This document shows positions 47,848-51,940 of a stretch of 64,000 nt of DNA, piece after piece. The stretch's first letter is position 1; each line of letters opens with the position of its first letter. A model generated the notes under the pieces. It was not told the origin of the DNA and did no database searches. It saw nothing but the letters and a program-made list of their open reading frames with translations. The DNA is from Escherichia coli (GTDB taxonomy: Bacteria; Pseudomonadota; Gammaproteobacteria; Enterobacterales; Enterobacteriaceae): assembly GCF_003334385.1 (NCBI RefSeq), contig NZ_QOWN01000007.1; one strand, 5' to 3'. A program made the position numbers and the translations under genes.

Positions 47848-47891
47848 GGCTCAGCAGCGGCTTAAATCTGCCTGCGCCTGAGCCAGTTTTT
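47848..47891 (+). terminator. Candidate intrinsic terminator for yegD, embedded in the 3' codons of convergent yegI
   Basis: GGCTCAG (47848-54) pairs with CTGAGCC (47878-84) and is followed by AGTTTTT. The loop is long (23 nt), so the structure is only moderately convincing. Confidence 0.35.
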
Positions 47892-49797
47892 CTGCCGCCT
47901 GACGTAACGGTTCCATCAACGGCATGGTCCGTGCTGGCGCATGAAGGCGGAATCGCTGCAACTCTGTCGCGCCGACAGTCAACGTCGATTCCAGCCGATG
48001 TCGTTTGGCGGCCATTTTAGTCATTACCGCTTGTCTGTCTGCAGGCGTTACCGCTTCGTTCGGCCTGAACACAAAACGGCGTTCACAGCTCGCTTTCCAG
48101 TCGATAACCGCCTGGGTCAGATGGTCGCCAAACCCTTTCACTTGCTTAACGCCACGACGGGTAACATCTGCTGCTGTTTCAATACCAAAGGACCGTAACG
48201 CCGCTTTACGCGCAGGGCCAACACCGGGAATAGAGGCAACATCAATAAAAAATCTCTCCAGAAACTTCTGTTTCTGCCGTTCCCTTGCAGTGTCATGAAG
48301 TGCTGCCAGAGCGCGTTTCTCTTCTTCCGGTAACCCGAGAATTTTGTCCTTCATTTTTTCGAGCATCGCCCGTTTGGCGATAAAACCTTCCAGCCCGCCC
48401 AACTGTTGGATCTGGTTGACTAAATGGTCATAGTCCATTTTCGCGCGATTAAATACCTCACGGCGTTGCTGAACTTCTGCTTTGTACGCTTTGCTTGTCA
48501 GACTGCCAATAATCCAGATAGCCGCCAGCACAGGAACCAAAATAATATAACGCGGTTCTGCCTGAAGGCCGCAAAGCAACAGCGATAACGCTGACAGTGC
48601 GATCTCAATCAGAATGATGTATTCGCGCCGTAACAGGCCTAAAGGAAGCGGCCTGCCAGTCGGTTGGAAATGATCGGGTAATGGCAGTTGCAATGCTGGC
48701 GGCGCTACTGACGCCATCACCATCGCCCAGACTTTCGCCAGCACAAAATCACCGCTGGTGGTAATGACCTCTTCGCCGAGATCAATAAAATAGATAACGC
48801 CTTGATTATCCAGCGCACACCACGGGCAGTCAGTCAAATGAGCGGGGTAAACATGCATTGCTGAAACGGTACATTTCTTTAACTGTTGGCGTAGAGAGTC
48901 CAGTGCCGCTACCCACGCTTTAGCCGTCGGACGCCCCGTTGCCACGCCACTTTCCGTGAATGCCTGCTGAAACATGGCTTCAACATCGCCCGGTAACATC
49001 GACAGCGGAATCGATCGTGGCGGCGGTTTTAAACCACGTCGCTGATTATCTGACGCGTAGGCATAACGGAAATGGGCAATATCCGTCTCCAGCGCATTAC
49101 CCGCATCAGAGATAAGCGGCACACCAGAATAAGGATGCCGCCCACCAAACAAGACGTGAAAAATCAGCAACGCAAGGCCAAAATTATCGTGATTCGCGGT
49201 ACGTTCAAAACCGACAAATGACGACAAGGTTTGTAGCTCTGGCGGCGTAAAATGCGACACGCCGACTTCGCATAAATGCAGTGTGCCATTGGCGTTAATC
49301 TGAAAGGAGTCACTATCGATCAACACCACTTTGCTGTCGCGACCTACCATAAAGCTGTTCTGGTTTACGTCCCCCACGACGTGCCCGTGCTCGTGAACCG
49401 TAGCAAAAGATGAAGCAATATTGCGCGCAACATAGAGTAGAAAATCCCACGCACAATGAGGGTAACTCTGGCGACGATGTGCCGGGCTATAGATCATATG
49501 AATCGGTTCTTTACCAGAAACTTTTGGCATCATAAAACCGATAACTTTTCCGCCTCGTCCACCGTGAAGCGTTGCCTGCGGCCAGGCGACATAATTCAAC
49601 AACTGCGCGTCAGCTGTCGCAGCCATAAAGGCAAGTTTGTCCTGTTTTAAGGCGGGTGGCGGCGTGTGATAAATCTTGGCGACGCTATCGACAAACTCCT
49701 CGATATCATAAACCGCGCCTTCACCACCTTTGCCCAGTTCACGGCCAAGAGTGGTCAATTCACCTGTCGATGTAAATACTTTTATATTTGTTTTCAT
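47851..49797 (-). CDS. yegI: Eukaryotic-like Ser/Thr protein kinase YegI (kinase + 2 TM + coiled coil + tandem HhH)
   Basis: 648 aa. Glycine loop LGKGGEGAVYDI, VAKIY lysine, catalytic loop HGHVVGDVNQNSF, IDSDSF (DFG equivalent), FTPPE (APE equivalent). Two hydrophobic segments (YIILIEIALSALSLLLCGL, YIILVPVLAAIWIIGSL). C-terminal IPGVGPARKAALRSFGI and VKGFGDHLTQAVIDW helix-hairpin-helix-like motifs. Confidence 0.9.
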   Translation of the reverse strand: MKTNIKVFTSTGELTTLGRELGKGGEGAVYDIEEFVDSVAKIYHTPPPALKQDKLAFMAATADAQLLNYVAWPQATLHGGRGGKVIGFMMPKVSGKEPIHMIYSPAHRRQSYPHCAWDFLLYVARNIASSFATVHEHGHVVGDVNQNSFMVGRDSKVVLIDSDSFQINANGTLHLCEVGVSHFTPPELQTLSSFVGFERTANHDNFGLALLIFHVLFGGRHPYSGVPLISDAGNALETDIAHFRYAYASDNQRRGLKPPPRSIPLSMLPGDVEAMFQQAFTESGVATGRPTAKAWVAALDSLRQQLKKCTVSAMHVYPAHLTDCPWCALDNQGVIYFIDLGEEVITTSGDFVLAKVWAMVMASVAPPALQLPLPDHFQPTGRPLPLGLLRREYIILIEIALSALSLLLCGLQAEPRYIILVPVLAAIWIIGSLTSKAYKAEVQQRREVFNRAKMDYDHLVNQIQQLGGLEGFIAKRAMLEKMKDKILGLPEEEKRALAALHDTARERQKQKFLERFFIDVASIPGVGPARKAALRSFGIETAADVTRRGVKQVKGFGDHLTQAVIDWKASCERRFVFRPNEAVTPADRQAVMTKMAAKRHRLESTLTVGATELQRFRLHAPARTMPLMEPLRQAAEKLAQAQADLSRC

Positions 49798-49996
49798 AAT
49801 ATTTCGCGGGTAGTTATATTATATTTCAATGAATAATAACAACTAACCATTAAAATTATTTCTATATGGGGAAAACCCACTCAAGAATAAAAATGATAAT
49901 GCAATTTTATCAGGATACAATTCAATTTCGGCCTGATAATGATTAACTTCCACAGGTTTTTGCTAACTTTGACTACAAAGGGATTCTGGAGAAAAA

Positions 49997-50458
49997 ATGA
50001 AAAAGATATTACTTATGTTGAGTCTGCTATTTTTTACTACCGCGGGCTTTAGTGAAGTTTCGGATACGTTAGTGACGGGAGGTTATGATAAACAAGCGAT
50101 GTCTGACGCGATTAAACATGCGCGGAAAGAAACCGATAAATTCATCGAGGTTATGAATAAAAAAGATGCCGATACTTTCGCAGTCAAAGCCCCGATAACC
50201 GATCACGGAAGAACCGAGCATTTCTGGCTTACGGATGTCACTTATTCTAACGGCATGTTTATTGGCGTAATCAGCAATGACCCTGGTATTGTTACAAACG
50301 TAGAATATGGCCAGGAGTGGAAAATCAAGAAAGAAGATATTTCAGACTGGATGTATACGCGCGGGGATAAAATTTACGGCGGTTATACCATTGATCCTTT
50401 ATTGGTCACCTATCCAAAAGAAGAAGCCGACGAGCTAAGAGCAAAATTAGTTCGCTAA
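49997..50458 (+). CDS. yegJ: Secreted DUF2314-type protein YegJ
   Basis: 153 aa. Signal peptide MKKILLMLSLLFFTTAGFS. Recognisable YegJ sequence. Lower GC than its neighbours. Confidence 0.88.
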   Translation: MKKILLMLSLLFFTTAGFSEVSDTLVTGGYDKQAMSDAIKHARKETDKFIEVMNKKDADTFAVKAPITDHGRTEHFWLTDVTYSNGMFIGVISNDPGIVTNVEYGQEWKIKKEDISDWMYTRGDKIYGGYTIDPLLVTYPKEEADELRAKLVR

Positions 50459-50485
50459 TCAGCCGTTATATTTATTGTTTAAACT

Positions 50486-50513
50486 GGCGGTTGAATTGTT
50501 GTCTTCAACCGCC
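50486..50513. terminator. Perfect 10-bp hairpin between convergent yegJ and yegK (candidate bidirectional terminator)
   Basis: GGCGGTTGAA (50486-95), an 8-nt loop, then TTCAACCGCC (50504-13). A partial T-run is present only on the minus-strand side. Confidence 0.5.
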
Positions 50514-50522
50514 ATGAGAAAC

Positions 50523-51284
50523 TCACTCTGCCCACAGCGCCAGTGCCAACGTTTTATCATCATCCGTACGCTCGTTTACCGCCGGGCTGGACAAAAACTG
50601 CTTTAACAATTCAGGTAATAAATCGAGTTGTTCCTGCGTTGCTGCCGCCAGTCCATTGAAAAACGGGGTAAAGAAAGGCACATGAGGAGAATTATCCAGC
50701 ATATTTAACGCCAGTCGCTGGATACCATCCGTAAATGCTGCAACTTTGTGCGCACGCCCAGTGCTGGTGAAAGTTTCCAGTCTGGAAACGGCATCTTCGT
50801 CGGTAATGAAGTGCGTCATGTTGGCATATTCACCCGCCATCGGCGTGAGAGGCAATTGCAGACCGTGACCCAAATCTACCACCACGCCGCCATCGCCAAT
50901 CTGCATAATCAAGGTGCCGTCAGGCGATGAAATCAGTCCCAGAAATGTGCAGGCAAAATCGCGAACCGCTAATTCTTTGGCTTCCGCCTCGGCAAAAAGT
51001 CGTTGACGAATGGTCAGTACCATATTTGTGGCGAGGACATCATTAAGCCCCAATTCCCCGCCCTGCACTTTTTGCGACATATAAGCCATCGCTTCATTGA
51101 CGGCGAGCATCGCGCCTTCGCCACCCTGCGAGACACTGCCTGCGCCATCAGCGACAAATACCGACAATAATGGCTGCTGGTCATTTAACCAGGCAATCTG
51201 CATCTGGCAGGCATCCTGACAAGGCAAGTCCGCGCTGATGTGCGACGTTCCAACGGTTGATGCATAGACCAGACGCCAGCTCAC
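50523..51284 (-). CDS. yegK: PP2C-family Ser/Thr protein phosphatase YegK (PphC)
   Basis: 253 aa. [17 protein letters not shown] and FTDGIQRL metal-binding aspartate motifs of PP2C-like phosphatases. The start overlaps the yegL stop by 4 nt. Confidence 0.9.
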
Positions 51285-51940
51285 ACTGACGTCCAGCCTT
51301 TTGGCGCTTCCAGCACAACTTCCGTTCCCGGCGTGGAGCGGGAAACCGAACGCAGCGAACTGGATAACCAGCTAAACAGTTCACGGAATTGTAATCCTTG
51401 CAGAGGCAAAGGCTGACGAACGCTAATTTGTGCCAGCGTCTTCATATCCGCCCCCTGAACACCGATGGAAAAGAAAGCAAACCTTTTATCTTCTTCCCCC
51501 CGAAACACTTTGTTGGCTGCAGCCTGCCACTCATCGGTTGGTGCACCATCGGTAATCAGGAAAATCCACGGGCGATAATACGAAATACCATTTGCACGAT
51601 ACTCACGTTTCCGCTCCTCTACCATATCCAGGGCTTTGGTAATGGCCGCACCCATTGGTGTATCGCCCTGGGCAAACAGGATGGGCGGAAAAAAATTAGC
51701 GGCGCTGGTAAAGGGTTGTTCCACATGCACCGGGCCGAACGTCACAATGCCGAGTTCCACTCTTTTTAAAGCCAGCGGATCAGCAAGCAGTTCATCACGA
51801 AAGGTAACCAATCCGGCGTTAAGTTCATTAATAGGTCTACCGTTCATAGAACCAGAAACATCCAGCAGCAAAATGCAGGGGCAACGTGGTTCCGGGTTAC
51901 TGGCAAAATCGCTGGTGGCAAACGTGATTTGTTCGCTCAT
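51281..51940 (-). CDS. yegL: von Willebrand factor A domain protein YegL
   Basis: 219 aa. Complete [14 protein letters not shown] (DxSxS), GDTPMG threonine, LITDGAPTD aspartate. Confidence 0.9.

Follow-up and report, generated by a model that had tools for sequence, protein, structure and literature searches.

The yegL–pphC–yegI locus of Escherichia coli: a mobile three-gene cassette of the TerY-P architectural class with a possible DNA-linked signalling role

The products of three neighboring genes, yegL, yegK (pphC) and yegI, are among the few Ser/Thr signalling proteins of Escherichia coli K-12 that lack a known role in this best-studied of bacteria. The genes occupy positions 47851–51940 (minus strand) of the 64,000-nucleotide stretch of E. 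coli DNA analyzed here (contig NZ_QOWN01000007.1 of RefSeq assembly GCF_003334385.1; hereafter the window) and encode a von Willebrand factor A (vWA) protein, a PP2C-type phosphatase and an atypical Hanks-type kinase. What kind of unit do they form, and what might it do? In the literature searched, no physiological role is published for the trio, as the first-pass annotation of the window had stated, and no paper links yegI, yegK or yegL to phage. The comparative picture is that the functional unit consists of exactly three proteins, that its least-studied member, YegL, is the most constrained, and that the kinase ends in a tail of DNA-binding type; YegL and this tail are the places to look for a role. 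The cassette is a self-contained, horizontally mobile and translationally coupled unit without any other fixed partner. By sequence comparison, it makes up a family of its own in the TerY-P architectural class, with a wide distribution, and it is closer to the Ter-linked triad than to the tested anti-phage TerY-P.

A 5.2-kb query over the trio region matches 5421 of 5426 complete E. coli genomes, on the chromosome. The features annotated at these loci are yegD, yegI, yegJ, pphC, yegL, ibsA/B and mdtA, and the window copies are 96–100% identical to the annotated yegI, pphC and yegL. The motifs that the first-pass annotation quoted for the three proteins can all be read in the translations of the open reading frames (ORFs), and they are not chance resemblances, as the metal ion-dependent adhesion site (MIDAS), PP2C and kinase residues are invariant or nearly so in orthologues. 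The assignment as vWA protein, PP2C phosphatase and Ser/Thr kinase is borne out, by Pfam for YegL and YegK and by a structural model and relatives for YegI. This is a correct re-identification of annotated, partly characterized genes, whose enzymes were published in 2018–2020 and whose triad concept dates from 2012. What is new here is the strict three-gene cassette, its spread, the co-divergence of its members, the constraint on YegL, the selection acting on the genes and the conserved layout of YegI. The structural statements on the trio that follow are made with high confidence.

The extent of the unit was assessed by scanning one genome per species, which gave 173 species with a YegI relative; 80 loci were examined. 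Hosts include Enterobacteria, many Burkholderiales, Pseudomonas, Nitrospira, Verrucomicrobia, Planctomycetota, Acidobacteria, Desulfobacterota, Sericytochromatia and the archaeon Methanoregula. The three genes are adjacent, in the order yegL, yegK, yegI and on one strand, in 76 of the 80 loci, the other four being partial or cut by contig ends. Among 63 complete cassettes, the junction of the first two genes is a 4-nucleotide overlap in 54, and the junction between the second and the third lies within −13 to +13 nucleotides in nearly all. In the window, yegL (51281–51940, minus strand, 219 residues) is the first gene of the cassette, and its TGA stop codon is overlapped by the GTG start codon of yegK (50523–51284, minus strand, 253 residues) in the sequence GTGA at 51281–51284, just as the first-pass annotation had read it; this overlap is a translational-coupling junction. 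The sole gap of more than 57 nucleotides between yegK and yegI among the 63 cassettes measures 725 nucleotides and is found in L001, the K-12-like E. coli copy of the window locus. Pairwise divergences of the three proteins are correlated (Spearman rho 0.87–0.93), and with the fixed gene order this marks the trio as strongly co-conserved across genomes.

Clustering of all ORFs of the 80 loci revealed no conserved fourth gene, and an apparent fourth cluster proved to be an artefact of antisense ORFs over yegK in high-GC genomes. The neighbors are heterogeneous: 159 Pfam families are represented among 114 flanking ORFs sampled at about 60 loci outside Escherichia, two ORFs per locus. Hsp70-like yegD was considered as a fourth component and rejected, since it accompanies the trio in Escherichia and Shigella alone, and the same restriction applies to alkA and mdtA. 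A census with Pfam and PADLOC found a type I restriction enzyme, GajA, QatA, PifA and AriA as neighbors in single loci. On the Rhizobium plasmid pColt5.8b the cassette is flanked by DUF262 and UvrD proteins, and on pPma4326F by umuDC-like genes and RNase HII.

The cassette is carried by 47 plasmids, of which 21 are conjugative. Among the carriers are pQBR103, megaplasmids of Pseudomonas, and plasmids of rhizobia, Deinococcus and cyanobacteria. When 1.84 billion cluster representatives were searched with a profile, 4288 clusters fell into the YegI family at E ≤ 1e-30. The full trio occurs on five of 2.9 million IMG/VR contigs, and INPHARED yields three distant metagenomic matches and nothing more; on these counts, the idea that the trio is a typical phage gene set was rejected.

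Within Escherichia, all three genes are under purifying selection. In comparisons between Escherichia species and between divergent E. coli alleles, the ratio of nonsynonymous to synonymous substitution rates (dN/dS) is 0.03–0.08 for yegL, 0.14–0.22 for pphC and 0.11–0.22 for yegI, and values for the flanking genes are 0.03–0.07 (yegD and mdtA) and 0.11–0.16 (alkA). Gene-wide positive selection was rejected on the 0.03–0.22 range of the trio.

YegL matches the Pfam families VWA (E 7e-10; 39.8 bits, cut-off 23.8) and VWA_2 (E 3e-7; 31.4 bits, cut-off 27), and a search of PDB sequences with it gave no match. It has a complete MIDAS (D27-x-S29-x-S31, T94 and D131), which is invariant in sets of 19 and 63 orthologues. 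Also kept among orthologues are an N-terminal motif, NPEPRCPC, and a Ser-rich C-terminal tail, WLSxSxxSVSxSxPG, in which S193, S195 and S200 are invariant and S202 nearly so. YegL retains 58–85% identity in other phyla and archaea and is the most conserved component of the cassette, with a median pairwise identity of 0.69 vs 0.48 and 0.44 for the other two; it evolves about 1.6–1.7 times more slowly than PphC and YegI.

PphC is assigned to Pfam PP2C_2 with E 5.7e-52 (176.7 bits, cut-off 24), and its metal-ligand motifs ADGAG, GDGG, TDG and DDD are invariant or nearly so in 63 orthologues; two of the eight canonical PP2C residues are absent according to the literature, and a PDB sequence search with PphC gave no match. 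PphC is an active phosphatase that dephosphorylates YegI (Rajagopalan and Dworkin; J Bacteriol 2018, FEBS Lett 2020), and the kinase–phosphatase relationship given in the first-pass annotation is thereby confirmed. YegI has also been published to phosphorylate PphC, without an effect on PphC activity.

YegI (47851–49797, minus strand, 648 residues) is harder to place by sequence. It has no match to Pfam Pkinase at E ≤ 0.01, its sole match being a sub-threshold one to HHH_5 at residues 517–552, so that the family assignments expected from Pfam in the first-pass annotation were obtained for YegL and YegK alone. A 77-sequence YegI family profile found no match among PDB sequences, and an NCBIfam scan of the three proteins returned irrelevant sub-threshold matches alone (LanL/LanKC kinase region, Stp1 and cobaltochelatase). 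An AlphaFold model of full-length YegI has a mean predicted local distance difference test score (pLDDT) of 70.5, which rises to about 90 in the C-terminal third and falls below 50 in the catalytic and activation loops. In a Foldseek search of the PDB with this model, the top 50 matches are all protein kinases (BRAF, ALK and TBK1 among them), with a best E of 4.4e-5 and a template modelling score (target) of about 0.5. Because the family members P0205 and P0206 pass the Pkinase cut-off (39–40 bits vs 31.7), the Pkinase homology of YegI holds transitively. The kinase domain (residues 1–300; 48898–49797) contains K41, VGDVNQN, DSD and TPPE, with VGD in place of HRD, DSD in place of DFG and PPE in place of APE; K41, D143, D161/D163 and TPPE are invariant in 77 homologues. 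The kinase-fold model, the Pkinase matches of relatives and published activity together argue that YegI is a kinase. Experimentally, it is active with a preference for Mn2+ over Mg2+, autophosphorylates on Ser, and has been examined in a staurosporine assay (Rajagopalan and Dworkin). Published autophosphorylation sites are S153, S160 and S162, in and beside the DSD loop, and published autophosphorylation kinetics are second-order, consistent with dimer formation.

The kinase domain is directly followed by a Cys/His zinc knuckle or ribbon (residues 305–330; 48808–48885) made up of C309, H315, H320 and C324-P-W-C327, in which C309, H315, C324, W326 and C327 are invariant in 77 homologues; this pattern points to probable metal binding. 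It is over this segment that the kinase of the ter-plasmid triad aligns with YegI, as does a shorter triad kinase of metagenomic origin. After a variable linker comes a membrane hairpin of two hydrophobic helices (residues 391–435; 48493–48627), with hydropathy peaks at 393–411 and 417–435 and model helices at 391–411 and 417–467. Its sequence is weakly conserved (column identity of about 0.32), and a hydrophobic segment is present in most orthologues. Published PhoA–LacZ topology describes an inner-membrane helical hairpin with both termini cytoplasmic. Beyond it, residues 436–515 (48253–48492) are modelled as a long cytoplasmic, coiled-coil-like helical stalk (helices 417–467, 469–487, 489–502 and 504–513, pLDDT about 90).

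The tail of YegI (residues 516–580; 48058–48252) is an (HhH)2 domain, that is, two helix-hairpin-helix (HhH) motifs with the canonical G-h-G hairpins IPGVGPARKAAL and VKGFGDHLTQAV in a five-helix domain. Both hairpins, which are the DNA-backbone-binding element of such domains, are conserved among homologues, and the modelled fold and motifs suggest that this tail may bind DNA; protein-binding relatives (NusA-AR2 and SAM domains) score equally well against it. The remaining part (residues 581–648 and the stop codon; 47851–48057) holds a conserved ASCERRFxF segment, then a long C-terminal helix modelled at 585–647 with high pLDDT. The overall layout of kinase, Cys/His knuckle, membrane hairpin, coiled coil and (HhH)2 is conserved.

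Variants of this layout occur within the family. Some YegI-family kinases have C-terminal bacterial SH3 domains (proteins P0205, P0247 and P0253), and on pColt5.8b the gene immediately downstream of the kinase specifies a separate SH3-domain protein (L082:10348-11010). Other members retain the kinase and zinc-knuckle head alone, with unrelated long C-termini (up to 1158 residues). Many truncated YegI variants of 400–580 residues, with hundreds of member sequences, are found in the protein database (P0019-P0042); some of these could stem from fragmented assemblies, and others could be genuine loss-of-function alleles. Both Shigella flexneri genomes sampled (L002 and L052) have a disrupted trio, with truncated YegL/YegK or YegI.

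What distinguishes the window from most E. coli is an insertion between pphC and yegI. The first-pass annotation delimited the trio correctly as 47851–51940 and omitted yegJ, which lies within this span on the other strand, in a variable insert that breaks the operon. The low-GC insert (GC about 0.40; 49798–50522, plus strand, 725 nucleotides) is lineage-specific and contains yegJ (49997–50458, plus strand), whose product matches DUF2314 with E 2e-25. A variable yegJ insert had already been described by Rajagopalan and Dworkin. yegJ is found in 1934 of 5426 complete E. coli genomes (36%), at 90–100% identity. As a low-GC insert of this distribution, absent from all other cassettes, it was rejected as a cassette component; the ancestral cassette did not include the insert. 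Strains that lack it have overlapping pphC and yegI genes, and where it is present, about 17 codons at the start of yegI and the final codons of pphC are rewritten. Upstream of yegI no strong Shine–Dalgarno sequence is evident, and the insert has a promoter-like site, by consensus match only, on that side of the gene. The coupling of yegI to yegL–pphC has been broken by yegJ in the K-12-like lineage, where the kinase:phosphatase ratio probably differs from that in most E. coli. According to a 2026 paper, YegJ binds to the N-terminal half of RNase E, and overexpressed yegJ induces yegD. The start of YegJ is signal-peptide-like (MKKILLMLSLLFFTTAGFSEV), which is odd for a reported binder of a cytoplasmic enzyme. 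In some strains, IS1 and IS421 insertions occupy the insert site.

How does the cassette relate to known triads? The TerY-P triad, a concept that later papers credit to Anantharaman, Iyer and Aravind (2012), is defined in its architecture by adjacent, co-directional genes for a TerY-type vWA protein, a PP2C and a kinase, and the trio has this architecture; in the window the order is kept, with yegJ interrupting it. Linkage to Ter or restriction modules is frequent in the class without being obligatory. Among the 114 flanking ORFs, no partner from Ter or DNA-processing/restriction modules recurs, and TerD, TerZ, TerB, TerC and other ter genes are absent from these ORFs, two of which were sampled per locus. 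The term 'TerY-P-like' in the first-pass annotation is upheld for the architecture and for a distant homology to the triad of ter plasmids, and fails for a PADLOC match to TerY-P and for orthology with the anti-phage system.

The validated anti-phage TerY-P (Gao et al., 2020; copy of E. coli G3/10, Stokar-Avihail et al.) shares the three-gene order of vWA protein, phosphatase and kinase, and is reported to defend against T7-like phages. The G3/10 copy (L091:7200-10459), traced from a 399-nucleotide fragment given in a supplementary table, bears the annotation 'TerY-P anti-phage system' and occurs in 4–5 of the 5426 complete E. coli genomes, in an island adjoining an IS5-family element and a type I restriction–modification system. 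BLASTP of the trio against it gives E values of 0.007 (vWA), 1.3 (phosphatase) and 0.015 (kinase). Pfam gives no match to the phosphatase of G3/10, PP2C_2 included, and only a weak one, DUF6991, to its kinase. The PADLOC TerY model PDLC02224 matches YegL with E 0.032 (11.7 bits) over 48 residues, YegK gives nothing, and YegI has weak matches to the generic kinase models PD-T4-6 and MkoA alone; the TerY-P hit that the first-pass annotation looked for was thus not obtained. The kinase of the systems of Gao et al. has a C-terminal OB fold of nucleic-acid-binding type in contrast to the (HhH)2 tail of YegI, and the validated TerY-P is a rare accessory island, with no membrane hairpin reported, whereas yegLKI is a core locus. 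On these comparisons, yegLKI is not an orthologue of the validated system. Because BLASTP and PADLOC similarity is negligible, the anti-phage result for TerY-P is not transferable by orthology; a tempting shortcut is blocked, since that result belongs to a different, non-orthologous trio.

The triad of ter plasmids such as pKP187 of Klebsiella has the same order of vWA protein, PP2C and kinase and is more similar in sequence. YegL is 29–37% identical to three ter-plasmid TerY vWA proteins (E 1e-17 to 6e-23), and PphC is 30% identical to the ter-plasmid PP2C over 151 residues (pairwise E 3e-7); between YegI and the ter-plasmid kinase, a pairwise E of 1e-4 covers only the C-terminal end of the kinase and the zinc ribbon and is weak evidence. 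Differences are also clear: the ter-plasmid TerY carries a TerY_C metal-binding domain that YegL lacks, the ter-plasmid PP2C has 577 residues, its kinase has 499 and neither a membrane hairpin nor an HhH tail, and the ter triad is embedded in a large ter/biosynthetic cluster, unlike the solitary YegLKI cassette. DUF4236 proteins flank the cassette in five unrelated Burkholderiales-type loci (L015:5288-6415, L019:5384-6460, L021, L033 and L042), and a DUF4236 gene adjoins terW in the ter cluster of pKP187 (L084:4046-5269); DUF4236 may be a recurrent partner of TerY-type triads.

In the TerY-P triads associated with CoCoNuT systems (Bell et al., eLife 2024), a zinc ribbon follows the kinase, and the Cys/His knuckle of YegI has the same place. 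Those triads are embedded in McrBC-type operons, whereas the YegLKI loci examined have no conserved McrBC, CnuH or CnuE partner, and YegI adds the membrane hairpin, coiled coil and (HhH)2 domain to what their kinases contain. By analogy, this suggests that the (HhH)2 tail may be one more nucleic-acid-type module at the position of the TerY-P zinc ribbon or OB fold. The YegI/PphC pair of Rajagopalan and Dworkin represents the same genes; the DSD loop, the VGD loop and the two-pass topology were described there, whereas YegL, conservation across phyla, the zinc knuckle and (HhH)2 were not treated in those papers and no physiological role was found. An unverified 'Bacteriophage sp.' scaffold from human faeces, MT836238.1, encodes a distant triad of vWA, PP2C_2 and Pkinase proteins (L085:5389-8289), with a vWA protein 42–44% identical to YegL and a 497-residue kinase that has a Cys/His knuckle and no HhH tail.

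A comparable switch is the PpkA–PppA threonine phosphorylation pathway of the H1 type VI secretion system (T6SS) of Pseudomonas aeruginosa, which brings together a Hanks-type membrane kinase, a PP2C phosphatase and a vWA domain and is activated by dimerization of the kinase. The vWA domain of PpkA is fused to the kinase and periplasmic, and the output of the pathway is Fha1 and T6SS assembly. Unlike PpkA, the E. coli system has its vWA part in a separate cytoplasmic protein, YegL, and no T6SS or FHA genes are linked to the cassette.

From this layout we tentatively propose that yegLKI works as a DNA-linked phospho-switch in a conflict or DNA-stress module; as a full mechanism, this is a serious possibility and falls short of being probable. 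On the inner face of the membrane, the coiled-coil and (HhH)2 tail would keep YegI in contact with DNA, and this DNA, which may be entering the cell or damaged, would promote YegI pairing and trans-autophosphorylation. Active YegI would then act on or recruit YegL, either via phosphorylation of the invariant Ser-rich tail or via binding of a phosphorylated or acidic loop by the MIDAS. PphC would set the threshold and reset the switch, and its output might affect DNA transactions, by arresting growth or interfering with foreign DNA. The first-pass annotation held that no phenotype was known, and this is outdated: overproduced YegL and YegI are both strong DNA-damage-up clones in an E. coli ORF library, which counts in favor of a DNA link, and yegI mutations are reported to recur in the long-term evolution experiment. 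If the locus proves to be a conflict system that senses DNA, its fixation in the core genome of a species would be out of the ordinary; if it serves ordinary signalling, the finding stays a correct re-identification of annotated genes.

Several points weigh against this proposal. Its central elements, namely DNA binding by YegI, phosphorylation of YegL and a phage or plasmid phenotype, are predictions. The trio is core at a fixed locus in 5421 of the 5426 E. coli genomes, which is unusual for defence systems, and PADLOC, at E ≤ 0.01 as at E ≤ 10, gives it no TerY-P assignment, YegK being without any match. The defence genes are single cases among the 114 neighbors, counted without a background control, and no enrichment is claimed. 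The dN/dS values carry no sign of gene-wide diversifying selection or of an arms race. The DNA-damage phenotype stems from overproduction and may be indirect, no expression condition for the trio has been found in published work, and HhH/SAM-like folds can bind proteins. In addition, four of 63 sequences of the YegI alignment lack any 19-residue window at a crude hydropathy threshold.

The most conventional counterpart to the DNA-linked switch is a chromosomal Ser/Thr pathway for housekeeping or stress signalling that acts on cellular proteins, perhaps during stationary phase or envelope stress, is unrelated to foreign DNA and uses the HhH-like tail for protein contacts. Core status and synteny in E. 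coli and its congeners, purifying selection about as strong as on neighboring alkA, the protein-binding domains among (HhH)2/SAM-like folds, and the reported recurrence of yegI mutations in an evolution experiment that is phage-free, together with the weak stationary-phase expression reported, all fit such a pathway. Outside Escherichia, however, the cassette has no conserved chromosomal context and is patchy over phyla, archaea and plasmids; no cellular substrate is known, and both G-h-G hairpins are conserved. Given the patchy, plasmid-borne spread and the occasional defence or DNA-related neighbors, a conflict or DNA-stress role is more likely than a housekeeping one, which we consider rather unlikely; this evidence is not decisive. 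At the opposite end, yegLKI may be an unrecognized immune or DNA-surveillance system in the E. coli K-12 core genome, representing a plasmid-spread family of about 4300 clusters. The membrane-tethered kinase would detect DNA via (HhH)2, the vWA/MIDAS protein would drive DNA-directed arrest and the PP2C would be a safety catch; defence finders would miss the system because it shares only architecture with TerY-P. This bolder version of the DNA-linked switch is unlikely. To equate the trio with the validated TerY-P itself, and to assume protection against T7-like phages on that account, would draw on the common gene order, the reported defence and the weak YegI matches to PD-T4-6 and MkoA. The alignment statistics of all three proteins, the PP2C_2 score of PphC (177 bits) against none for the G3/10 phosphatase, the island beside type I restriction–modification genes in a handful of genomes against a locus in nearly all, and the use of MG1655, itself yegLKI-positive, as the phage-sensitive host for cloned TerY-P leave this orthology, on sequence grounds, effectively refuted.

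Two further accounts concern the chemical environment and the state of the locus. In the one, the YegL MIDAS would sense a metal ion and the kinase–phosphatase pair would signal resistance to tellurite-type or other chemical stress. A metal-sensing switch has already been hypothesized in print for TerY-P, YegL is homologous to the TerY of ter plasmids with their identical gene order, DUF4236 proteins adjoin both the ter cluster and five YegLKI loci, and YegI prefers Mn2+. Against this stand the absence of ter genes from the flanking ORFs, the lack of TerY_C in YegL and the distance of the similarity to the ter triad, which is reduced to a short segment for YegI, and we consider the account improbable. 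In the other, the trio of K-12-like strains would be an inactive remnant in which yegJ has uncoupled yegI and the locus is transcriptionally silent. The loss of the pphC/yegI overlap to the 725-nucleotide insert, the rewritten yegI start, the lack of a visible strong Shine–Dalgarno sequence, and the truncated YegI variants and disrupted Shigella trios are in keeping with this, as is the failure of published work to detect transcripts of the locus under the conditions used. Yet the three ORFs are intact and full length in the window, 36% of genomes retain the yegJ-bearing form at 90–100% identity, dN/dS of the window allele against others is 0.05–0.22, overproduced K-12 YegL and YegI are biologically active, and the insert supplies the promoter-like site upstream of yegI; we consider a disabled locus improbable.

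On either side of the cassette, the window holds features of other kinds. yegD (plus strand) and yegI (minus strand) are convergent, with 12 nucleotides between their stop codons (47838–47851), and the yegD/yegI pair is listed among excludons defined by RNA-seq in a 2025 paper. Between yegL and mdtA lie two antitoxin RNAs of the SIB_RNA family (SibA/SibB), at 52087–52235 (plus strand, 149.5 bits) and 52422–52564 (plus strand, 142 bits), opposite ibs type I toxin genes, whose copy number differs among E. coli strains from two to three (L083, L092 and L093).

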